64,000 nucleotides of DNA, from IMG/VR virus record IMGVR_UViG_3300031992_000038, positions 1 through 64,000 of that record; one strand, written 5' to 3'. Numbering within the stretch: the first letter of the stretch is position 1; every line of letters begins with the position of its first letter. Below are positions 284 through 21,716 of this stretch, piece after piece. The notes beneath the pieces were generated by a model. The model saw only the letters and a list, made by a program, of their open reading frames with translations, searched no databases and had not been told where the DNA came from. A program made the translations under genes and the position numbers. This DNA is from a virus. Taxonomy: Duplodnaviria > Caudoviricetes.

Positions 284-715
284 TCATTTTGGCCACATGA
301 TGATGCATGTGTCGTAGCGTTCAAACGGAACGTCGACAGAACCGGCGGCCATTGCCTTGATATATCCGGATATGACCATGCCGTCGTCGTATGATATTTC
401 TATGTCCCACACTTTGGACATCGGATATCCTTCCTTGTCACGTTCACCCAATATATTCAGTTCACCGCCAAGCGACTCAATGACTGACGCGTAGTCGTCA
501 ACGCACTGCCAGTGGTCGTCTTTGTACAGTCTTGAGTCGATACGGTACTCGTGCACCTTCTTGTATATGCGGTTTATCCTCGCCCGGACAGTCTTTGGGC
601 GTCTTCCGACGAACTTCGACACCTCCCGGTTTGCCAGGTCGTCGGACAGTGACTCGTTTATCCGGTTCATCACTTCTTTCGACACGGCACTGACGATATT
701 ATCCAACGTTCTCAT
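284..715 (-). CDS. Hypothetical protein with leader-like N-terminus
   Basis: 143 aa; N-terminus IVSAVSKEVMNRINES resembles the recurrent leader; 4-bp overlap with the protease gene. Confidence 0.7.
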   Translation of the reverse strand: MRTLDNIVSAVSKEVMNRINESLSDDLANREVSKFVGRRPKTVRARINRIYKKVHEYRIDSRLYKDDHWQCVDDYASVIESLGGELNILGERDKEGYPMSKVWDIEISYDDGMVISGYIKAMAAGSVDVPFERYDTCIIMWPK

Positions 716-1428
716 CCTCTAAGAATTGAGTCTACCTTTTTTATTCTTTCCATGAGCGAGTCACCGCTTTTCGAACGCGACTCGATATATGGGGTCAGTT
801 CCTCCCTTGTCCTTTTGATGTATGCCGAACTTGTTGAAGGCTCAAGCACGACATCCCAACACACCAGGTCAAGGTCGTCACCCACATACAGCGCGTCGAA
901 ACGTTTCTCGACCGAACCGAGCGCTCTTGACGACACGCCGACAAGAAGGTTGTCTATCAGCATGCACGCCACAAGGTCCCCGCTTGTCGAGCACACGCCA
1001 TACCTGCGGAATCCCGGTGAAAGATGGAGCTCCATCTCACCGACTAGCGTCCTGCCCTCCCAGTTCAGGTTGAGTATGTTGTGCGAGATGTCATGCCCGC
1101 TCAGCGCGCTTGACGAAGGATGGTCCAGCGAACCGACTGCGCATCTTGTCTCGACGCGCTCCTTGATGTACCTGTCAACTTCCCTGCGGAGAACATCCTC
1201 GGGGTATATCCGTCCGTTGGCGTTCTTTATTCCATATTTCTGGAACACGGCGGACACGACGAAATGGTCCGGTATCACAAACTGCTTGTTTGAACCTATG
1301 TCCTCGTTTATCTGTTTTACTGTGTCAGAGTTGGCTATGATGTGGCCGTCGCGTTCTATCAGCAGACCGCTCCCGGATTCACCGGCCTTAACCTCCCTGA
1401 TATCTGTTAGATTGTCAAATCTTGTCAT
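712..1428 (-). CDS. Prohead core protease (T4 gp21-like)
   Basis: Motifs KNANGRIYP, GSLDHP, GVSSRALGSV and WDVVLEPS. Start taken at ATG 1428 because the TATTTAT motif overlaps the ORF-track start at 1476. Confidence 0.9.
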   Translation of the reverse strand: MTRFDNLTDIREVKAGESGSGLLIERDGHIIANSDTVKQINEDIGSNKQFVIPDHFVVSAVFQKYGIKNANGRIYPEDVLRREVDRYIKERVETRCAVGSLDHPSSSALSGHDISHNILNLNWEGRTLVGEMELHLSPGFRRYGVCSTSGDLVACMLIDNLLVGVSSRALGSVEKRFDALYVGDDLDLVCWDVVLEPSTSSAYIKRTREELTPYIESRSKSGDSLMERIKKVDSILRG

Positions 1429-1491
1429 TTTTCCGTCAGAATTTATGAATGAATGGCACACTTTGGCGCCATTCAATAAATATAGGCGGAA

Positions 1492-2612: not shown

Positions 2613-4037
2613 TCAGTCTTTTTTTTTAACTGCGTCAAAAATTGAATCCGTGATGACGTCGATGACCTTCTCGGTGTATGGGTCACCGTTTCCGATCTTG
2701 TTTCCGTAAGGAGAGTTTCCTTTGGTCGAGTCGTCGTTCCAGTCCTTTCCGAACCTGTCTGGCATATTGTGGTTCGGGTATGTCATCGGCTCCTTGCGGT
2801 ATGCCGGATGTTTACCAAAGTCATTCAGCACAACCTCGTATATCCTCTCTCCTCCTTTGCGGCCGCGTGATTCATAGAAGTCTGTGTCATCCAAGTATCC
2901 GTCATCATCATCACCTGAAGTCAACGAATTCACGAGTTCCCTCCATTTTGCATCATCACTGACATCCTCGATACCTTTAAGATTTTGTTCATAGCCAGGT
3001 TCAGCTTCCGGGAACGGCACATCATCATCATATTCTTCATCATCGTCCGGATCGAGGTCGCTCAACTCATCGTCGGTGTAGTCTTCGTCTTTGTCCGGGA
3101 CCTCGTCAAACCCCTCGACGTCGTCAGGGTCTACGTCCTCTGATTCTGTCATGTAAGGATCTCCGTTACCGACATCGCCGGTACCGGTTCTCGGGAAATT
3201 CTGGTCGTCGGTGTTGTGCACGGCCTTCTCTTCCTTGATCGGGTCGGTGTCCGCTTCGCCCTGGTTGCTTTCGCTGCCGAGTTCGTCCGTGTACGGCGCA
3301 GAACTGCCTACGCTTGTCTCATTCCTCTTGTCCATGTAGTTGTCGGCGTGACGGTTCCATGCCAGCACCTGTTCCTCTGTCAGTTTCACGGTCTTTCCCT
3401 CGGCCACGGTTCCCTTGATGTCGTATCCGTCAGACTTGTCGGCTTTGGGTTTTTCAGTGTAAGGCGATGCTCCTTTTGTCTTAGCACCTTTTTTGTCCGG
3501 AGACTCTGTGTATGTGTCACTGGCGGGACCGTTTTCCGGTTTCTCACCCTTGTCACCGGTGGTTCCGACATAAGTGGTTTCCGCTTCCTTTCCCTCCTCT
3601 ATGAGGATGGAATTGTTCACAATCTGGTTGAAACGGTCAATCTCGTTGCGCATCTCCTTTGTCTCGTTGATCTGCCACTCGGCCGGTTTGACCGTATGGA
3701 ACTGCTCGATGACCTTCTTGCTGCCGCACGACTCGTTGATTTCCTTCATCAGCACGTCGAACTGCTTCGATGCCACAGAGTATGTCGTGTACTCATTGGC
3801 CTTTTTGTTCATGTAACCGCCTATGTAGTCGTAATCCTCGGCCAAAATCTCAGTGTCCTTTTTCGGGGCGACCTTGATGTAGAACTTGTTGCATTCGCGC
3901 AGTATTCCGTAGGTCTTTCCGTCCGCCGCCTTTACGTGGTACTCGACGACAGGAGCGCCTGACGACTTACTTGTGTCGTTGCCGAAGTTGATCAACTTCT
4001 GCATCCTCTTTATTTCGCCATCATAAATTTTGCTCAT
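2613..4037 (-). CDS. Acidic prohead core/scaffold-like protein
   Basis: 474 aa, very D/E-rich, many (L/I)xE sites (INE, IEE, LTE, IKE); near the protease; TATTTAT motif at 4084-4090. Function is inferred. Confidence 0.6.
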   Translation of the reverse strand: MSKIYDGEIKRMQKLINFGNDTSKSSGAPVVEYHVKAADGKTYGILRECNKFYIKVAPKKDTEILAEDYDYIGGYMNKKANEYTTYSVASKQFDVLMKEINESCGSKKVIEQFHTVKPAEWQINETKEMRNEIDRFNQIVNNSILIEEGKEAETTYVGTTGDKGEKPENGPASDTYTESPDKKGAKTKGASPYTEKPKADKSDGYDIKGTVAEGKTVKLTEEQVLAWNRHADNYMDKRNETSVGSSAPYTDELGSESNQGEADTDPIKEEKAVHNTDDQNFPRTGTGDVGNGDPYMTESEDVDPDDVEGFDEVPDKDEDYTDDELSDLDPDDDEEYDDDVPFPEAEPGYEQNLKGIEDVSDDAKWRELVNSLTSGDDDDGYLDDTDFYESRGRKGGERIYEVVLNDFGKHPAYRKEPMTYPNHNMPDRFGKDWNDDSTKGNSPYGNKIGNGDPYTEKVIDVITDSIFDAVKKKD

Positions 4038-4097
4038 GATTGAACTGTATATCCTTAAAAATTTGTTATTTTCTATTTACCAAATAAATAGTGCGGT

Positions 4098-4877
4098 TCA
4101 CCGGATTGAATTGACCGAGTCATATGTCTTGTTGACCCAATCCCACAATTTGTCGAGGTATCCCTCTCTCCGCAGCACCTTCCATATGATGTTTCCGCTG
4201 CTCATCTCCCTCGCCTTTGAGGACAGGCCGCTCTTGCGGAGGTTCTTGAGCCGGTCGAATATCTTGATCAGGTTGTCACATGACTTTTTCTTCGGGGCGT
4301 CGCTCTTCGACCTCCTTATCCTGCGGATCTCGTCGTCGATGTCCGTCATGTATTTCGCGGCGGTGTCCTTGATGTATGTGGTGTTCAACCTGGCGTCCGA
4401 CAGGTCCTCAGGTTCACTCACCCATTTGTTGTCCTCAAGCGAGAACACGCCGGAGGATTTTGACGGTTCACCGGAATCCTCAACCGAAATCTCGACCGGA
4501 TAACCGTATATCTTGAGCGATTCGTGCGAGTCTGACCACTCATTCTTCTTGGCGCTGAAATAATCCTTGACAAACTCTTTCCTGCGGTCCCACACTTTCG
4601 AGAAGTCCACGACCACATGCAGGTCAATGTCAGAATACTCGGACCAGTTATAATTGGCCAGCGAACCGGTGAACACAATGTCCTTCGGTTTCACCCACGG
4701 CACAGCAAGCGTGTCGACAAAGTCCCAAGCCATGTCAAGCAGCGCCCTTCGGACGTTCGGCTTGAGTCTGTCGCCGTCCCACAGCTTGCCGTTAAGTTTG
4801 TCCTTCACGGCAAACGAGTCGAGTCTTACTTCGTCTGACTCCACCTCATTGATTATTTCTGTGTCAAGTTCTAACAT
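4098..4877 (-). CDS. Pol-beta superfamily nucleotidyltransferase
   Basis: GSLANYNWSEYSDIDLHVV fits the GS-x-DxD motif; third acidic residue region VEISVE. Confidence 0.8.
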   Translation of the reverse strand: MLELDTEIINEVESDEVRLDSFAVKDKLNGKLWDGDRLKPNVRRALLDMAWDFVDTLAVPWVKPKDIVFTGSLANYNWSEYSDIDLHVVVDFSKVWDRRKEFVKDYFSAKKNEWSDSHESLKIYGYPVEISVEDSGEPSKSSGVFSLEDNKWVSEPEDLSDARLNTTYIKDTAAKYMTDIDDEIRRIRRSKSDAPKKKSCDNLIKIFDRLKNLRKSGLSSKAREMSSGNIIWKVLRREGYLDKLWDWVNKTYDSVNSIR

Positions 4878-6125: not shown

Positions 6126-7169
6126 ATGAAAAAAGTGAGATTATATGGGTTCTGTGGTAGGAAAAGAAGCGGAAAGACCACATTGGCCAATATGATGGCA
6201 GAAAACGTAAGACCCGTCAAGATAGTATCTTTTGCTGACCCGCTCAAGGAACTTGTGTGCGAGATACTTGATGTGAACATCCGTGAGCTGGACACGATGA
6301 AGGCGAGCGGTGTAGAAATAGACGGCACAATGCGTGACCGTGTGACTGACATTGTCCACAGGCACACACTCATACCGATAAGCGACATCGTGGACAAGGT
6401 CGGACAACTCCGCCTGCGCACGGTCAGGGATTATCTGCAGGAGATAGGCACTGACCTGATAAGGAAGTGCGACCCTGACTGGCACGTCAACAGGATAAGG
6501 GGCAAGGTCGATCACCTCATCAAGAGCGGACACTGTGTCGTGATAGACGACGTGAGGTTCACGAATGAAAAGGACATGATAGAAGACATGGGCGGCGAAT
6601 GCTTCTTCGTCGTCCGTCCGGACTGCATAGACGTCTCAAACCATGTGTCCGAGACAAATCTGAGATGGCAAATGTTCGACAGCGAGCACATCATCATCAA
6701 CGACAGAAGCCTCGCCAATCTTTCAGACGCCCTTCGCACATCCATTGAAGACCCTTGTAACTGCTGGAACTCGTTGACGGTCGCCGACCGCATGGACATT
6801 TTCGGATACCGCATGCCTTCTGACAAGGAATGGGGATGCGCACTGACGGACAAAATGCATGCTGACGAGTGGCTCGTGTCGCTGATGGGGATGGGGGAGA
6901 GCGGGTATTACGCGATGAACATACCGGTAAGGTCACGCGAGGACGCTTCGAAACTGATGGGCAAGTTCCATTCGAGGTTCCAGAAGACAAGCAAATACGG
7001 GGACAACATAGGGTATGTGACCGTGATGTGCCCGCTAATTATCGAAAACTTAAAACTGCATCTTGGAAATGGGAACAAAACGGAAGAAACCGTCACAGAC
7101 AGTTGGGACGCTGGACGAATACATCAAGGCGAACCGGGCCGCGAGCCGGACAGAGGAGATGGAACTTAA
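6126..7169 (+). CDS. Deoxynucleoside monophosphate kinase with C-terminal extension
   Basis: GFCGRKRSGKTT, SFADPLK, LQEIGTDLIR, VIDDVRFTNE, HVSE. Confidence 0.85.
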   Translation: MKKVRLYGFCGRKRSGKTTLANMMAENVRPVKIVSFADPLKELVCEILDVNIRELDTMKASGVEIDGTMRDRVTDIVHRHTLIPISDIVDKVGQLRLRTVRDYLQEIGTDLIRKCDPDWHVNRIRGKVDHLIKSGHCVVIDDVRFTNEKDMIEDMGGECFFVVRPDCIDVSNHVSETNLRWQMFDSEHIIINDRSLANLSDALRTSIEDPCNCWNSLTVADRMDIFGYRMPSDKEWGCALTDKMHADEWLVSLMGMGESGYYAMNIPVRSREDASKLMGKFHSRFQKTSKYGDNIGYVTVMCPLIIENLKLHLGNGNKTEETVTDSWDAGRIHQGEPGREPDRGDGT

Positions 7170-7416
7170 CGGCTGGCGATGGAAGGCGAAGGACAGGCCG
7201 CACAAGAACAAGAAGAAGTATGACAGAAAAAGGGACCGCCGAGTGATTCTCGACAGTCCCTTTCCTATTATTATGCTGAACCGGTGTCTTTATGCCTTCA
7301 CGACCTCATACACCTTCACGCCGTCCTCGACCGACTCGTTCACGGTGTACCCGTCCTCGAGCAGGTTGACCGGACCGTTCGGTTCGCCATACGAAACCAT
7401 CGGGTTGAACCCATAG
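7069..7416 (+). CDS. Small basic protein; candidate ArfA/BrfA-like ribosome rescue factor
   Basis: First ~55 aa: YIKANRAASRTEEM...HKNKKKYDRKRDRR. No stop before a terminator hairpin; the rest of the frame is antisense to the fibre gene. Confidence 0.5.
   Translation: MGTKRKKPSQTVGTLDEYIKANRAASRTEEMELNGWRWKAKDRPHKNKKKYDRKRDRRVILDSPFPIIMLNRCLYAFTTSYTFTPSSTDSFTVYPSSSRLTGPFGSPYETIGLNP
7229..7263. terminator. Terminator hairpin between convergent genes
   Basis: AAAGGGAC...GTCCCTTT stem, fully paired with GU wobbles and followed by U5 on the minus strand. Confidence 0.7.
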
Positions 7417-10079
7417 AACTTGCCTCCGTAGATGTGGATCCTCTTGTCGGTCGGGTCCCAAGTCTTGTCAAGGTAGTTCACAAGGAACTTGAAGTTTCCG
7501 TTTACGTCGACATCGGCCGGATTGTCCTGTCCGTTGTTGAGTTTGAACACACCGCCGTAGACGTTGATCGTCGCTTTTGAACTTCCGAGATACAATGTGT
7601 GGGTGTTGCCCTCGAAGGTGCCGTTCATAATGTTGATGGTCGAGTTTCCGTCCGCCCAAAGACCGTAACTGCGCGTGCTCTTGAACGTGCCGTTTCCGTC
7701 TATTGTCAGGTTGACAGAACCCCTTGTCATTATTCCGCTGTTGGCGTCGTCTATCGTGAGCGTCCTCCCGTTCATGTCGAGTTTCGAGTTGCCTGACGCG
7801 ATGATTCCGTACACGATTCTGGCCCTTGTGATGTCCTCATCCATTACCGTTATACCCGGACTGAGCAGAGCTGAGTTCAGTGACGGACCGTCAGAAACAT
7901 GCGTCTCCTTGCATGACACGGTGTAATCCGTGTTGTTTGAAACCTCACCAATTCGGTTCTCCACCGCGATGTCGTTCACGATGACATTACCTTTCTCGAC
8001 GACAAGTTTGTTGATGTGAGCGTTCTGTGTGACTATCAGCGTGTCAGCGCCTACGTTCGAGGTCAACTCGTTCCACTGTCCCTTGTTCAGTGTCACGGTC
8101 GAGTTTGGCGCATTGATTGTCGCAGACGGAACATTACCGTTCTCTTCAGTGTTTGCGTTCGCTATGCCGAGGTTGGCTGATGTGTCAGAAGCGATGACAG
8201 AACCGTCAGCGAATGTCACACCTGATATCGTGTTGTTCTTGGTCAGTCCGTCCTCGTTGTCCACAACCACACTGTTTGCTGTCAGGGTTGTGTTCGAAAC
8301 GGCCGACAACGACGCGTTATGGAGTGTTATCGTGTTAAAATCGCCACTCATCTTTACGCTTGTCACTGAACCGCTCTCAGTCGCCGGCGCCGGTGATTCG
8401 ACTGTGACCGACACAGGTTCTTCTGAAGTGTTGTTCAAGGTAAAAGACTTCGGGCTTGACAGCGTCACGGTCGCGTTGTCCTGAATCGGCGCTGTCACAG
8501 ACATTGACTTGGTTGTCTCCGGGATAGTCACGTCGCCAAGCTCACCCTCAGTTATTGTGACTGAAGTGTTAGTGTCAGACAGTGTGCTTTCCACATAGTC
8601 AGCGTTGATTGACGTTGCGGCGTCTCCGGTGACCACTGAATGCACCGCTTCCAGAAGCGCGGCGTACTTGCCGTTCAGTTCGTCATACTTGTCTGTTGTG
8701 ACGTAATTTTCCATGTCCGGGAGGTCCGTTGTCTTGGCGAACGCGTCATGGTCAATGTTCTCAAGCGCAGATATCCTGTCACCGAGAGCTCCGTCCTTCT
8801 CGTCGACATATGCGGTCTTCGCGTATTCCGACAGGTCCTGATGCTCGGTAAGATATCCTTTTTCGGCAAGTTCACTCTCCGTCACGTATTCAGACAGGTC
8901 CTGATGCTCGGTAAGGTATCCTTTCTCGTCAAGTTCAGTCTCCGTCACGTATTCAGACGGGACCTCGGTCAAGTATTCACCCTTAGGCTGGTAAGTCTCT
9001 TCTGCGGCGGCAACTTTGAGGTACTCACCCATATCCGGGAGGTCCGCTGTCTTGGCGAACGCGTCGTGGTCAATGTTCTCAAGCGCAGATATCCTGTCAC
9101 CGAGAGCTCCGTCCTTCTCGTCGACATATGACGTTGACGCCTTTTCTGACAATGTGCTCACGATACCGGCAACCGCATCCGTGTTGTCGTTCAATGCGTC
9201 AGAAATCTCCTTGAGCGTGTCAAGCGCCTCAGGAGCGTCGCCCACCAGCTGACTTATCTTGGTGTCGACATATTCGGTCTTCGCGTATTCCGACAAGTCC
9301 TGATGCTCTGTCAGATAACCCTTCTCGTCAAGTTCAGTCTCCGTGACATATTCGGACGGGACCTCGGTCAAGTATTCGCCCTTGGGCTGGTAAGTCTCTT
9401 CGGCGGCAGCAACTTTGAGGTACTCATCCATGTTCGGAAGATCATCAGTCTTTGCGTATGCGTCAAGCTGTTCCGTCTTGGCGTATGCGTCAAGGTCTTC
9501 GGCCTTTGCGTACGCGTCAAGCTGTTCCGTCTTGGCGTATGCTTCAAGGTCCTCGGTCTTTGCGTACGCGTCAAGGTCTTCGGTCTTGGCATATGGTTCA
9601 AGCGCGGTGTTCACGTCGTCCATTGTGACGAACGCTGACGTGTCTGGCATCTCAGGAAGTTCATCCTTCTTGACGAATGTTTCGTCGGCATCCTGCTTGG
9701 TGTAAACGTCGTCAACGTTTGCCTTTGAAGCAAGTGCATCATTCAGAGCGCCCAGACCTGTCTCGCTGTCAGTCAGTACAGCGGCGATCTCCTTGATTGT
9801 GTCAAGATCCTCAGGCGCACTTCCGACAAGATTCTCGATTGCCGTGTTCACCTTTTCGTCAGCGATATTGCCGGCTTCTTCCCTGTCAACCTTGTTGGTC
9901 TCGATGTCGTCTATTTTGGCCGCAACCTCACTGAGCGTGTCCATTTCCTCGGGGGCATTGTCCACAACGCCGCTTACCGCGTTGTTAACCATCTCCTGCA
10001 GAGGAGCGTTTTTGTCGTATTCGGCATTCCTGACGCTCAAGTCAGAATACCCGTAGCCATATATAAGTTCTTCCTTCAT
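7290..10079 (-). CDS. Repeat-rich tail fibre/virion appendage-like protein
   Basis: APEALDTLKEI-type motifs (three copies), LDAYAKTE 9-aa repeats, GYLTEHQDLSEY repeats, beta-rich C-terminus; TATTTAT at 10100-10106 supports the ATG at 10079. Confidence 0.7.
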   Translation of the reverse strand: MKEELIYGYGYSDLSVRNAEYDKNAPLQEMVNNAVSGVVDNAPEEMDTLSEVAAKIDDIETNKVDREEAGNIADEKVNTAIENLVGSAPEDLDTIKEIAAVLTDSETGLGALNDALASKANVDDVYTKQDADETFVKKDELPEMPDTSAFVTMDDVNTALEPYAKTEDLDAYAKTEDLEAYAKTEQLDAYAKAEDLDAYAKTEQLDAYAKTDDLPNMDEYLKVAAAEETYQPKGEYLTEVPSEYVTETELDEKGYLTEHQDLSEYAKTEYVDTKISQLVGDAPEALDTLKEISDALNDNTDAVAGIVSTLSEKASTSYVDEKDGALGDRISALENIDHDAFAKTADLPDMGEYLKVAAAEETYQPKGEYLTEVPSEYVTETELDEKGYLTEHQDLSEYVTESELAEKGYLTEHQDLSEYAKTAYVDEKDGALGDRISALENIDHDAFAKTTDLPDMENYVTTDKYDELNGKYAALLEAVHSVVTGDAATSINADYVESTLSDTNTSVTITEGELGDVTIPETTKSMSVTAPIQDNATVTLSSPKSFTLNNTSEEPVSVTVESPAPATESGSVTSVKMSGDFNTITLHNASLSAVSNTTLTANSVVVDNEDGLTKNNTISGVTFADGSVIASDTSANLGIANANTEENGNVPSATINAPNSTVTLNKGQWNELTSNVGADTLIVTQNAHINKLVVEKGNVIVNDIAVENRIGEVSNNTDYTVSCKETHVSDGPSLNSALLSPGITVMDEDITRARIVYGIIASGNSKLDMNGRTLTIDDANSGIMTRGSVNLTIDGNGTFKSTRSYGLWADGNSTINIMNGTFEGNTHTLYLGSSKATINVYGGVFKLNNGQDNPADVDVNGNFKFLVNYLDKTWDPTDKRIHIYGGKFYGFNPMVSYGEPNGPVNLLEDGYTVNESVEDGVKVYEVVKA
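8717..9590. repeat. Internal direct repeats in the fibre gene
   Basis: Near-identical ~95-bp blocks (~8717-8812 and ~9035-9130), ~130-bp blocks (~8895-9030 and ~9297-9430) and tandem 27-bp units at ~9450-9590. Confidence 0.85.
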
Positions 10080-10280: not shown

Positions 10281-10733
10281 ATGAGAAGACGAACACTAAT
10301 GAGAGCCCTGATTGCGCTGCTGATGTCATTCACCGCACTCTTCACCATGGCTCAGGACGCCTATGGCGACACGACGAAAAATGAACAATGGCAACTGCTC
10401 ATAAGGGCGATTAGCGCAGTAGAGAGTGGTAACAATCCTAAGGCCGTGAACGGCCAGCACGCCGGACTGCTTCAGATATCACCGGTGTGCGTGAGAGAAT
10501 GCAACAACATCGCGGGATACAAGAAGTACACCTACAATGACAGGTTCAGTGCTGAAAAGTCAATCGAAATGTTCGAGTTGATACAGTCAAAGTACAACCC
10601 CGGCCGCGACATAGAGAGGGCCGCAAGACTGTGGAATGGGGGAATGGGAGGAGTCCTGCACCCGAAGAGGACGGACAGATACTACCGAGCGGTAAAAAAG
10701 AAGATGGATCAACTGTCAGCGGATAGAGATTGA
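10281..10733 (+). CDS. Lysozyme-like/lytic transglycosylase with N-terminal signal or anchor
   Basis: AISAVES (catalytic Glu), GLLQI and ARLWNGG motifs; hydrophobic N-terminus. Confidence 0.75.
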   Translation: MRRRTLMRALIALLMSFTALFTMAQDAYGDTTKNEQWQLLIRAISAVESGNNPKAVNGQHAGLLQISPVCVRECNNIAGYKKYTYNDRFSAEKSIEMFELIQSKYNPGRDIERAARLWNGGMGGVLHPKRTDRYYRAVKKKMDQLSADRD

Positions 10734-10838
10734 AAAAAAAAGGGAATGATATACTATTTGTCCTTCCTAATCTTTTAAGATAAATATCATTAAAACTCAA
10801 ATGCGGCCAAACTGACCGCATTTTCTGTATTTACAGGC

Positions 10839-10846
10839 TATTTATA
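10839..10846 (+). promoter_or_regulatory. Putative phage late promoter TATTTAT (representative site)
   Basis: On the sense strand upstream of about 15 structural or leader-bearing genes (positions listed in findings). Confidence 0.65.
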
Positions 10847-10862
10847 AGAAAAAGACTTGATT

Positions 10863-11315
10863 ATGAAGAAGACTATTAAACTTAGTGAATCAGACTTACA
10901 TAGGATTGTGAACGAATCTGTAAAAAGAATCCTAATGGAAGATTGGGAAAGCCCATTGCAACAATATAAAAACTCACCATATCCACCCGTTAATTTAACG
11001 ATAAAAGGAAAAATTGATGATTTTGACCGTACAAAAGGTTATGATTACCAATTTGACAAATCGTCTGATACGAATACAAACCATCGAGAACCAACGGCAT
11101 CTGATAAATTGAGAAAATACGGAAGCCTTAGAGGTGCTGCTATGCGATATAGAGTCAGCAATGGAAGGAATGCCGAAATAGGTGATGCTTTGATAGAATA
11201 CGGAATAGAGCAAGGTATTGAACGGGGAAATAAGTCGGATGAGCAATACGCATGGTTTATCGCAAAACTAATTGCTTCAAGGCAGATTCCATTTGACGAA
11301 AATAGCGAATATTAA
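10863..11315 (+). CDS. IS passenger protein with leader MKKTIKLSESDLHRIVNESVKRILME
   Basis: AT-rich ORF inside the TIRs; TATTTATA at 10839-10846; its stop overlaps the transposase stop (TTAA). Confidence 0.8.
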   Translation: MKKTIKLSESDLHRIVNESVKRILMEDWESPLQQYKNSPYPPVNLTIKGKIDDFDRTKGYDYQFDKSSDTNTNHREPTASDKLRKYGSLRGAAMRYRVSNGRNAEIGDALIEYGIEQGIERGNKSDEQYAWFIAKLIASRQIPFDENSEY

Positions 11316-12256
11316 CCCACCATCTTCACGTCCCAATAACGGACGATACCGATGGACTTTTCGAACATCATACGGAAGCGGCTCTCAGGGGTCGCTTCCC
11401 TTGTATTCCAACGGAACAACTGCTCGTCAATGTACCTCTGAAGATAGGTCTTGCTGACAAAGTGGTACGTGCCGAAAATCACATGCTTGAAATGCGCCCA
11501 AAAGCCCTCAACGCTGTTGGTGTGGATACCATTGGGACGAACAAACTCCTTCTTGCCGTGACTTACATAGTCGTGACGGAAACCCGCCTTGGTCAGTCCC
11601 TGATACGAAACCAATTCATCGGTCAACAGGTGTGCATTCTCACGGATGAACTGCTTGATAATGGGCATCAAGGTCTTGGCCTTGGTATCCTCGACCTTCA
11701 TGACAACGGTCTTACCATCACGCTGTAGCATACCGAAAATAGGGGTCTTGGTCTTGGTGGAGCGACCCTGTGTGCCTTCGGTCTTCTTGCTTTCGTGCTT
11801 GTTGATTTCACGGCCACCAAGGTACATTTCGTCCATTTCCACGTCACCGTCAAGGGCAACGGCATCGTCCTGTGCGTACAGGGTACGGATTTTGTGCAGC
11901 ATGTACCAAGCTGTTTTCTGAGTAACCTCGCAGTCACGGGCGAGTTGGTGAGAGGAAACGCCCTTCTTGTGTGAGGAAACGAGGTACATGGCGATGAACC
12001 ACTTACTCAGAGGCAAGTTGCTGCTTTCAAAGATAGTGCCGACCTTACAGGAGAAGTTATGCTTGCACTTGTTGCAACGGAAACGGCCATCGGTGCGCTT
12101 TACGCAGTGATGCTCACCGCAGATTGGGCAGATAACATCGTCACCCCAACGTGCTTCGGTGAGGGTGTCGATGCAGGTCTGCTCGTTGCTGAAGTGACGG
12201 ATGACCGAAACAAGGCTCTTAAACCCAGTGAAATCTATGTTATTCATGACCTTCAT
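11312..12256 (-). CDS. IS1595 (ISXO2-like) DDE transposase
   Basis: Zn ribbon CPICG...FRCNKC, VEMDEMYLGG, LLTDE, HTNSVEGFW, YIDEQLFRWN. Confidence 0.93.
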   Translation of the reverse strand: MKVMNNIDFTGFKSLVSVIRHFSNEQTCIDTLTEARWGDDVICPICGEHHCVKRTDGRFRCNKCKHNFSCKVGTIFESSNLPLSKWFIAMYLVSSHKKGVSSHQLARDCEVTQKTAWYMLHKIRTLYAQDDAVALDGDVEMDEMYLGGREINKHESKKTEGTQGRSTKTKTPIFGMLQRDGKTVVMKVEDTKAKTLMPIIKQFIRENAHLLTDELVSYQGLTKAGFRHDYVSHGKKEFVRPNGIHTNSVEGFWAHFKHVIFGTYHFVSKTYLQRYIDEQLFRWNTREATPESRFRMMFEKSIGIVRYWDVKMVG

Positions 12257-12400
12257 ACTATGTTTTCTATTATTATAGTACAAAGGTACTAGAAAATCCA
12301 GCAAAAACGGGAATATTTTTAGCTAAAGAAAGCTAGCAATCAGCTAATTAAAGCTAACGAGAGGATTTGGGGACAAATAGTATATCATTCCCAAAAAAAA

Positions 12401-12420
12401 TGGCGGCAACAATGCCGCCA
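12401..12420. terminator. Terminator hairpin adjoining the IS target site
   Basis: TGGCGGCA-acaa-TGCCGCCA next to A8 (U-tract for the minus-strand gene). Confidence 0.7.
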
Positions 12421-12428
12421 TAAGTGTT

Positions 12429-13091
12429 TCATCTACGATAGTAAGTGTTGTAGACATCCTGAGTCAGACCATGGTCGAGCAGCACCGGCATCGCCCCTCC
12501 GTCACGTTTGGCAAGACCCCAGTTCCTGATGGCGACAATGTCGGCGTTCTCCTCTTGCGAGTTGCACAAGTAATCCTCCAGGTCGCTGAAGAACTCAAGC
12601 TCGTCGGTAAGTTCGGAATACCTTTCATCTGACATCTCTATATGCCGCCAACCGCCATACCGCGAATACCTTGCGAAAGTCGTGTAACAGAAATCTACAA
12701 ATTCGTCAAACGTCACACCCAGGCACGCCTTGAAGTCAGACCTTTTTGCCGGCAGCACATACTCGCACTCAATCCACATGTCGTTATCGTAGTCGGCCGA
12801 GAATATCCTCGGGAAAATGTCGTATCTCTGTTTCCATCCCTCCGATTCAACCCTGTTCTGCGCCGTCCCCTTCTCGTTTTTGGCGAGTTTCAGACATCTT
12901 TCGTCGTCAATCTGGAAAACCATCCGCGACGACCCGTTCCCTATCGGCTGGCCGAGATGCTCCTTGCAGTATCTGACTTTTCCGGCGTATGTCCGGATTG
13001 ACTCAAGTTCATCTGTGCTGAACTTGCCGTCTGTCGCCTCATTCAGTATGCGTGATTGCTGCTCTTCTGTCAACACTATTACTTTGTCCAT
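12429..13091 (-). CDS. Protein-kinase-like protein with leader
   Basis: IGNGSSRMVF Gly loop, CLKLAK, QNRVE, ADI..RNWG and LLDHG; leader VIVLTEEQQSRILNEA. Confidence 0.65.
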   Translation of the reverse strand: MDKVIVLTEEQQSRILNEATDGKFSTDELESIRTYAGKVRYCKEHLGQPIGNGSSRMVFQIDDERCLKLAKNEKGTAQNRVESEGWKQRYDIFPRIFSADYDNDMWIECEYVLPAKRSDFKACLGVTFDEFVDFCYTTFARYSRYGGWRHIEMSDERYSELTDELEFFSDLEDYLCNSQEENADIVAIRNWGLAKRDGGAMPVLLDHGLTQDVYNTYYRR

Positions 13092-21251: not shown

Positions 21252-21273
21252 CTATTTTTAACCCAAATTCGCC

Positions 21274-21716
21274 CGCTATTGGGATGTGAAGATGGTAGGT
21301 TAATTTAATTCGTGTATGACAAATTGGTCAATCCCAATAGGATATCCTAATACGTAATAGTAATCATCAGGATACTCATCAGCTAATTCTTCATCGCCCG
21401 CATAAAGTTCGGCAAATCCGTTCTCTTTTGCGTATCTCATGACCTTTTCCAAAGCATCAGAAGCATCATATGCATCGCCTACATAGTATAAAGATGACGA
21501 TAAACTGCCAAAACCTATTTCAACACTATAATCGGCGTCTTCCTTTGACTCACAATCAAGGCAAACAGGTGTATCATACGTAGGAACAGAACTCTCCCTT
21601 AGCACCCTTTTTACTGATTCCCTAATCACTCTATGTAGGTCGCTTTCACTAAGTCTTATTCTTCTCTTCATATTCAGTTTCAATATGTTTGTTTTTTATA
21701 AATAGTCTGTAAATGC
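21274..21716. mobile_element. Remnant of a second IS1595 passenger cassette
   Basis: 21274-21303 encodes RYWDVKMVG*, identical to the transposase C-terminus; same TTAA stop overlap; same ATTTACAG(G/A)CTATTTATAA upstream block. Confidence 0.85.
21300..21671 (-). CDS. Former IS passenger with leader MKRRIRLSESDLHRVIRESVKRVLRES
   Basis: AT-rich; leader homologous to 10863 but cargo domain unrelated. Confidence 0.8.
   Translation of the reverse strand: MKRRIRLSESDLHRVIRESVKRVLRESSVPTYDTPVCLDCESKEDADYSVEIGFGSLSSSLYYVGDAYDASDALEKVMRYAKENGFAELYAGDEELADEYPDDYYYVLGYPIGIDQFVIHELN

Follow-up and report, generated by a model that had tools for sequence, protein, structure and literature searches.

A cargo-loaded IS1595-family element in a probable jumbo phage, with evidence for a swappable cargo slot and for a clade shared with Bacteroidales

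An intact IS1595 element and its passenger gene

The window analysed here comprises the first 64 kb (64,000 nucleotides) of the 115,873-bp IMG/VR virus record IMGVR_UViG_3300031992_000038 (G000; CheckV completeness 32%) and contains an intact insertion sequence (IS) of the IS1595 family, 1,651 bp long, at positions 10742-12392. In all likelihood this element belongs to a distinct clade of IS1595 "transporter" elements that has a swappable cargo slot and is spread across jumbo phages and Bacteroidales. An earlier note made from the letters alone had described perfect inverted repeats with an A8 duplication around a transposase gene and a convergent AT-rich passenger, and all these features were recovered. 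The left terminal inverted repeat (TIR; GGGAATGATATACTATTTGTCC, 10742-10763, plus strand) is complementary at 22/22 positions to the right one (12371-12392, minus strand), which is its exact reverse complement; the chance of such a perfect 22-mer pair within 1.9 kb is negligible. Both ends are flanked by the target-site duplication (TSD) AAAAAAAA, eight A on each side (10734-10741 and 12393-12400); on the left the A run is one longer (nine), as it begins with the final base of the TGA stop codon of the neighbouring SLT gene. The transposase gene is intact and lies on the minus strand (11312-12256). Its 314-aa product matched DDE_Tnp_IS1595 (PF12762; 6.7e-44) over profile positions 2-153 of 153, Zn_ribbon_IS1595 (PF12760; 5.7e-10) at residues 24-66, and the NCBIfam model transpos_IS1595 (NF033547) at 1.8e-63 and 214 bits, against a cut-off of 75. 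All the defining features tested (DDE domain, Zn ribbon, TIRs, and 8-bp TSD) were present, so the element belongs to this family.

Convergent to the transposase gene lies the passenger, or cargo, gene (150 aa; 10863-11315, plus strand), whose TAA overlaps the transposase stop codon and whose G+C content is 32-38%, compared with about 50% in the flanks. A non-transposition gene inside the repeats places the element among the passenger-carrying (transporter IS) kind. The earlier note had also attributed to the passenger an upstream motif and an N-terminal leader typical of the phage, and this was borne out: the promoter-like motif TATTTATA (10839-10846, plus strand) is located 16 nt before the passenger ATG, and the first 26 residues (MKKTIKLSESDLHRIVNESVKRILME, ending in L-x-E; 10863-10940, plus strand), which were detected as a match to the leader profile, recur on other phage genes. 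The backbone of the element is fixed: the left repeat is followed by about 60 nt with a hairpin at their end (10799-10823; minus-strand energy -14.9 kcal/mol, z = -3.7), and the transposase gene and right repeat complete it. Between the left-end hairpin, which marks its 5' edge, and the transposase stop codon lies the cargo slot, occupied here by the single 150-aa gene. A predicted terminator-like hairpin for the passenger (11374-11399, plus strand) is located within the 3' coding end of the transposase gene. Since the repeats are perfect and the duplication is exact, a recent insertion of the window copy is suggested.

As the earlier note had proposed, the insertion into the A/T-tract of a terminator left the genes around it whole. 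On the left, the gene for an SLT-domain lytic transglycosylase (10281-10733, plus strand; PF01464, 3.3e-07) is intact, and so is the 220-aa gene on the right (12429-13091, minus strand; phrog_4301), whose intrinsic-terminator hairpin (12400-12421, minus strand; -16.7 kcal/mol, z = -5.3) is followed by T8. The element entered the T-tract of this terminator and zero open reading frames (ORFs) were broken, because the target was the T-tract; the terminator still has its T8 tail because of the target duplication. Relatives of the 220-aa flank protein were only 39-46% identical and non-syntenic. In a related phage contig of 34 kb (GCA_016648615.1), a fibre-like gene is followed by an SLT gene and a ClpB-like ATPase gene, and the gap of about 50 nt between the latter two contains neither an IS nor the 220-aa gene.

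Sister copies, cargo turnover, and decay

Phage and metagenome contigs that share the left end of the element, including the exact left repeat, were collected (L005-L010 and L106-L140), and a repeat scan recovered 35 metagenome contigs and one transposase-less derivative of 974 bp. In two of the copies, L125 and L132, the transposases were 96-97% identical to that of the window. Sister copies of this same IS species carried at least seven unrelated leader-tagged cargos, genes for BspA-type leucine-rich repeat (LRR) proteins, or several genes: a 174-aa gene in L112, a 125-aa gene in L113, LRR-type genes in L132 and L137, and, in the full element of 3,034 bp in L125 (duplication TACAGGAA), four genes including one for a 210-aa leader protein. 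Past their first 30 residues, the leader-tagged cargos gave no mutual BLASTP match, except those of L112 and L120, which are the same cargo. The test set beforehand, that many cargos should be found behind one leader, thus came out in favour of the earlier note. The number of passengers per sister element ranged from one to four, and all of the more than 25 clade members examined were loaded with cargo, none being a bare IS. The copies occupied many distinct insertion sites, with 8-bp duplications such as TACAGGAA (L125) and AATTATAA (L009). Thirteen metagenome contigs in which a 19-mer is followed by AGACAAATTC were set aside as not belonging to this element, since they represent unrelated bacterial contexts (e.g., L117).

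Comparison of the copies located the edges of the slot. Homology to the window element stopped just past the left-end hairpin, at about element position 82; where the two cargos compared both have the promoter and the leader, it ran on to positions 135-168, inside the leader. It restarted exactly at the transposase stop codon (position 570/571) in 8/8 variants. The stem of the left-end hairpin varied between copies and its pairing was kept.

In two of the contigs (L110, 356-3600; L140, about 6700-9969), the same 22-bp repeat is followed by genes for a D12-class adenine methyltransferase (PF02086, 1.6e-35) and for a 675-aa protein, that is, defence- or modification-type cargo behind the same element end. 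L140 also has another, imperfect repeat, equally oriented and 1.6 kb from the first; leader genes lie in the interval.

Several copies were found in different states of decay. The 974-bp derivative (L009 and its copies) retains both 22-bp repeats, the AATTATAA duplication, and two ORFs, and occurs at several sites. Two homologues of the window passenger, with 97% and 79% identity, were detected in other phage contigs lacking an intact transposase; both still have the exact left repeat before them and transposase-gene remnants behind. The 3' piece of that gene bearing the terminator-like hairpin of the passenger is retained in the decayed copies L005 and L006. The window itself contains the relic of a second element (21269-21710, minus strand) with no inverted repeats left. 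This relic comprises the same promoter block as the element (ACAG.CTATTTATAA; 21696-21710, minus strand), a different cargo gene of 123 aa with the same leader (21300-21671, minus strand), and, directly past the cargo stop, 36 nt of the transposase 3' end, which code for its last 11 residues (FARYWDVKMVG*; 21269-21304, minus strand). The copies can be ordered into four stages, from intact elements through the internally deleted L006 and then L005 and L010, which keep the left repeat and cargo only, to the 21.3-kb relic. Such a series would be expected if, after insertion, the transposase decays while the cargo persists.

Occurrence in phages and in Bacteroidales chromosomes

Transposases 54-67% identical to that of the window, with related repeats and 8-bp AT-rich duplications, were identified in eight IMG/VR contigs, and related repeats (GGGAAC[GT]ATATAC...) were present in at least 20 relatives. 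Exact 8-bp duplications, the targets being AT-rich 8-mers, were found at L009, L011, L013, L015, L017, L021, L023, L029, L030, and L125. Among the IMG/VR relatives, passengers were leader-tagged in L015-L018 and BspA-type LRR_5 genes in L011-L013 and L016. Four of these records represent phages that are complete or nearly so (345-413 kb) and hold one or two copies each; one of them, a complete phage, has direct terminal repeats. For the L013 element, in a 413-kb phage, the orthologous spacer is uninterrupted in a related 413-kb phage (G001). Adjoining that element there is a GIY-YIG homing-endonuclease-like gene (L013, 2032-2793), which is absent from the G001 spacer; since this gene and the IS1595 element stand side by side, two mobile elements share one spacer.

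These phage copies bear on whether the window element could be an assembly chimera, produced by merging IS reads of host origin into a phage contig. In favour of a chimera, the record was assembled from a metagenome, and passenger and flanks differ in G+C content. On the other side stand the exact 8-bp duplication at an otherwise continuous terminator, the presence of the same element at other sites in several independent phage contigs, and the related elements in a complete phage genome with terminal repeats. We consider a chimera barely credible.

The earlier note had expected the element to be restricted to one phage clade, and this expectation failed. A scan of 185,579 species genomes detected the clade in Bacteroidales at 57-66% identity, together with a few bins labelled Bacillota. 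At least three sites were plainly chromosomal: L021, in the isolate Hoylesella loescheii An865, with lptF/G, a C1 peptidase gene, and dxs around it; L019, adjoining an MBOAT gene in a Prevotella bin; and L028, between hisS and a gene for a glycoside hydrolase of family 2 (GH2). In the tree of the loci fetched, where the clade received a support of 100/98, phage and chromosomal copies were mixed and at least four switches were forced; because of this mixing, the element is not confined to a phage clade, and the same transposase clade sits at Bacteroidales housekeeping sites such as the lptF/G-dxs one. This sharing of the IS would suggest Prevotellaceae as hosts of the phage. ORFs beside transposases at least 50% identical gave leader-profile matches of 26-62 bits, and the leader-profile scores at the more distant IS1595 loci fetched were all below 14 bits. 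In five host genomes (2.0-3.3 Mb) there was one leader match each, the IS passenger, and one transposase copy each. By its sequence, the cargo is NEVERTHELESS phage-type, though the element is not phage-restricted. Deposited phage DNA gave no match to the element; of 50,697 deposited phage records, three contained any IS1595 transposase, all of them fragments with at most 40% identity.

These data also allow the simplest alternative to be weighed, namely an ordinary IS with an accidental hitch-hiking phage gene, whose promoter and leader would mark only the origin of that gene and imply neither a designed slot nor adaptation to phages. Passenger-carrying IS1595 members are known already: Siguier, Gagnevin and Chandler reportedly described in 2009 passenger-carrying "transporter IS" of the ISPna2+/ISNwi1+ types, and ISfinder is a further source. 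The promoter and leader of the passenger are, moreover, those of resident genes, and the sharp cargo boundaries may be a survivorship effect. This alternative is nevertheless improbable in view of the uniformly loaded state of the clade members examined, of nearly identical transposases (96-97%) with unrelated cargos joined at the same two points, and of chromosomal copies that carry phage-type cargo too.

The cargo, its upstream motif and leader, and their possible role

The 150-aa passenger showed no match in Pfam, PHROG, or NCBIfam. Its AlphaFold2 model had a mean pLDDT of 48.9 and was too poor for a fold search; structural look-alikes in the Atlas reached scores of at most 0.78 and TM values of at most 0.39. 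The helix predicted at residues 9-24 lies within the leader.

The motif upstream of the passenger is directional in the phage record: of the 17 occurrences of TATTTAT[AT], 12 were sense-strand sites located 5-60 nt upstream of called genes, against a comparison rate of 15% for AT-only 8-mers (p = 5e-7 for the bias). The genes behind it include those for a 929-aa fibre-like protein, four paralogues of the YLHLF...EPW family, and a 474-aa acidic protein near the prohead protease; about 12 genes of the record are preceded by it, e.g., at window positions 4090, 10106, 20873, 27158, and 51283. Among related passengers, phage or chromosomal, nearly all have (A/C)TATTTAT(A/T) 16-45 nt upstream. Identity of the TATTTATA-type motif with the T4 late promoter was rejected, since the T4 late motif TATAAATA was upstream of a gene in 0/7 occurrences in the record. 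TATTTAT(A/T) can be regarded as a candidate phage-specific promoter, for which a late-promoter reading fits without being proven, and it might drive expression of the cargo. In three loci from huge-phage contigs of 216 and 351 kb (L100-L102, about 3694-4170), a leader-tagged gene (MAKTVIRLNEDELKGMIKNILKE...) that has ATATTTATA upstream comes after a homologue of the 220-aa flank gene; because of this arrangement, promoter and leader also appear to move jointly outside IS elements.

The leader of the window passenger had the top profile score in the phage record (61.8 bits), the profile having been derived from the A3 alignment, in which this very leader forms the first row. About 12 leader genes were found in the 116-kb record. 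Of the two leader copies in the window, one uses TCA for serine where the other has AGC, and several further differences between them are synonymous; the leader is thus under selection at the peptide level. An exhaustive profile search recovered 8,719 protein clusters (50% identity) with the leader at E <= 0.001; a word-based search showed nearly all of them to be unnamed metagenomic proteins 80-780 aa in length that lack Pfam domains, some stemming from contigs of 380-560 kb. No Pfam, PHROG, or NCBIfam model covers the module, and deposited phage genomes contained no leader match at E <= 1. Labels of resident leader proteins as kinase-, ADP-ribosyltransferase (ART)-, or ArdC-like were left unused, as there was no Pfam match. 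In the best 120 leader proteins, the first copy lies at most 12 residues from the N-terminus in 103, and 54 have extra internal copies; of 154 motif ends, 147 have E at P1 and 145 have L or I at P3. Five predicted proteins (P0003, P0004, P0007, P0026, and P0031) have two to four leader modules each. An internal copy often follows Met-Lys-Lys, as if neighbouring leader genes had been fused or read through, and in P0007 a second leader protein is attached to a homologue of the cargo at 21.3 kb.

A further alternative is that the element is bacterial and carries an accessory module of its own, for example a transposition or regulatory partner, the leader genes of phages being leftovers of insertions. 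The leader is indeed tightly tied to this transposase clade and absent beside more distant IS1595 members, and the 21.3-kb relic indicates that at least one "resident" leader gene came by way of the IS. Against it, an IS is not evident near most of the 8,719 leader clusters, the roughly 12 leader genes of the phage record contrast with a single transposase and a single relic, the cargo of many clade members is leaderless (LRR or other), and host genomes have a single copy. We therefore regard this alternative as very improbable, more so than that of a hitch-hiking gene.

The source phage, of gut or rumen origin, is probably in the jumbo size range, since its record of 115,873 bp was rated only 32% complete, and it is T4-like; relatives of its genes adjoin T4 gp13-like and sheath-like genes. 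Outside the element, it encodes a T4-type prohead protease (Peptidase_S77; 712-1476, minus strand; Pfam 3.1e-20, above the cut-off). The protease gene belongs to a head-morphogenesis block with neighbours at 284-715, 1492-1926, 2005-2601, and 2613-4037; upstream of it are acidic, Gly/Pro-rich proteins that may be scaffold or core proteins, none of which had a Pfam match. The T4 prohead protease, gp21, has a cleavage preference for (L/I)-x-E. In T4, N-terminal propeptides of 10-20 residues, the capsid targeting sequences (CTS), load unrelated internal proteins and Alt into the prohead and are cleaved off by gp21, and in giant phages the propeptides are longer and are cut multiple times, with Glu at P1 (PMC3012670, PMC5694885). 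Because the leader ends in (L/I)xE and the same phage encodes a T4-type prohead protease, loading of the cargo into the virion is plausible. The leader would then be a CTS-like prohead-targeting propeptide removed by the phage S77 protease after (L/I)xE, a proposal that we give somewhat less than an even chance. The one line of evidence pointing to virion loading is this match between the leader end and the protease family, and virion loading itself is put forward just as tentatively.

Like T4's internal proteins and Alt, the leader proteins are unrelated proteins that share a short conserved N-terminal peptide, with a prohead-protease-type site (Glu at P1) at its end and a gp21-type (S77) protease in the phage. 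Unlike the T4 CTS, the leader has 26 residues instead of 10-20 and occurs also internally and in repeats; T4 CTS genes, for their part, have fixed positions, and no transposon carries them.

Cargo of phage type, with the upstream element of the phage and a leader that is common on phage proteins and limited to the IS in the five host genomes, argues for a gene shuttle: most likely, the family would move ready-to-express accessory genes among jumbo phages and spill into their hosts. A more far-reaching version, which we find rather unlikely, is that of a phage-adapted delivery vehicle, with a defined cassette slot that swaps genes equipped with the phage late promoter and a leader for capsid targeting. 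With every transposition, the phage would gain a protein that is at once expressed late, packed in the head, and injected, and the cargo swap could be guided by leader-coding homology on one side and by the transposase end on the other.

Several points weigh against these proposals. As to the slot, its sharp boundaries could reflect selection against broken transposases and not dedicated exchange. The recent mobility suggested for the window copy rests on its perfect repeats and duplication; a pattern scan of metagenome contigs found no empty-site allele, in which ...GATTGAAAAAAAAA would directly adjoin TGGCGGCAACAATGCC. As to the spread into hosts, several of the genome loci are metagenome bins and possibly mis-binned, L021 alone being from an isolate, and the phage-to-host direction is inferred from the distribution of the leader and not from a rooted test. 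As to the leader, it has no sequence likeness to the T4 CTS, and it occurs also internally or near the C-terminus, sometimes in two to four copies, which would fit multi-site processing and equally well a generic interaction helix. Finally, in the H. loescheii passenger the ending is VLKR and not LxE.

With the transporter IS, the clade shares a transposase with a Zn ribbon and an ISXO2-like DDE domain, short TIRs, an 8-bp duplication, and passengers inside the repeats. Unlike them, it is present in jumbo phages as well as bacteria, has a slot with fixed edges and a high turnover of unrelated genes, and carries cargo with a phage-type upstream motif and a shared N-terminal peptide. The 974-bp copies resemble miniature inverted-repeat transposable elements (MITEs) and other non-autonomous IS derivatives in having the same repeats and 8-bp duplication, no transposase, and several sites, and differ from MITEs in keeping two intact-looking ORFs. 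As in integron cassettes, a fixed platform holds a slot for one or more unrelated, promoter-dependent small genes, with a hairpin at the slot edge; unlike in integrons, each cargo has its own promoter and the platform is a DDE transposon. Assignment to an integron cassette system was rejected: the only enzyme gene codes for the DDE transposase, no tyrosine recombinase being present, and no attC/attI-like repeated sites were found at the cargo edges, which are the backbone hairpin and the transposase stop codon. Full-text literature searches yielded no description of the leader peptide or of an IS1595 element with a passenger in a phage, and we found no prior account of what these sequences point to: a clade kept in jumbo phages and shared with hosts, always loaded, with a bounded slot of fast turnover and with cargo bearing the phage motif and leader.

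Phage genomes seldom contain insertion sequences, which are usually viewed there as damage. The elements described here would instead represent a transposon lineage that is maintained in giant phages and always loaded with cargo, that lands in harmless AT-rich spacers, and whose cargo outlasts the transposase. This would give jumbo phages a concrete route for gaining accessory genes and for exchanging them with one another and with their Bacteroidales hosts. If the elements were in addition delivery vehicles, they would provide jumbo phages with a portable arsenal of ejected effectors that also seeds host chromosomes. The 26-residue module, uncatalogued and present on about 8,700 protein clusters, would, if it is a head-targeting propeptide, label the set of injected proteins in a large group of uncultured phages from gut and rumen, and it may then offer a tag to package foreign proteins, as the T4 CTS does.

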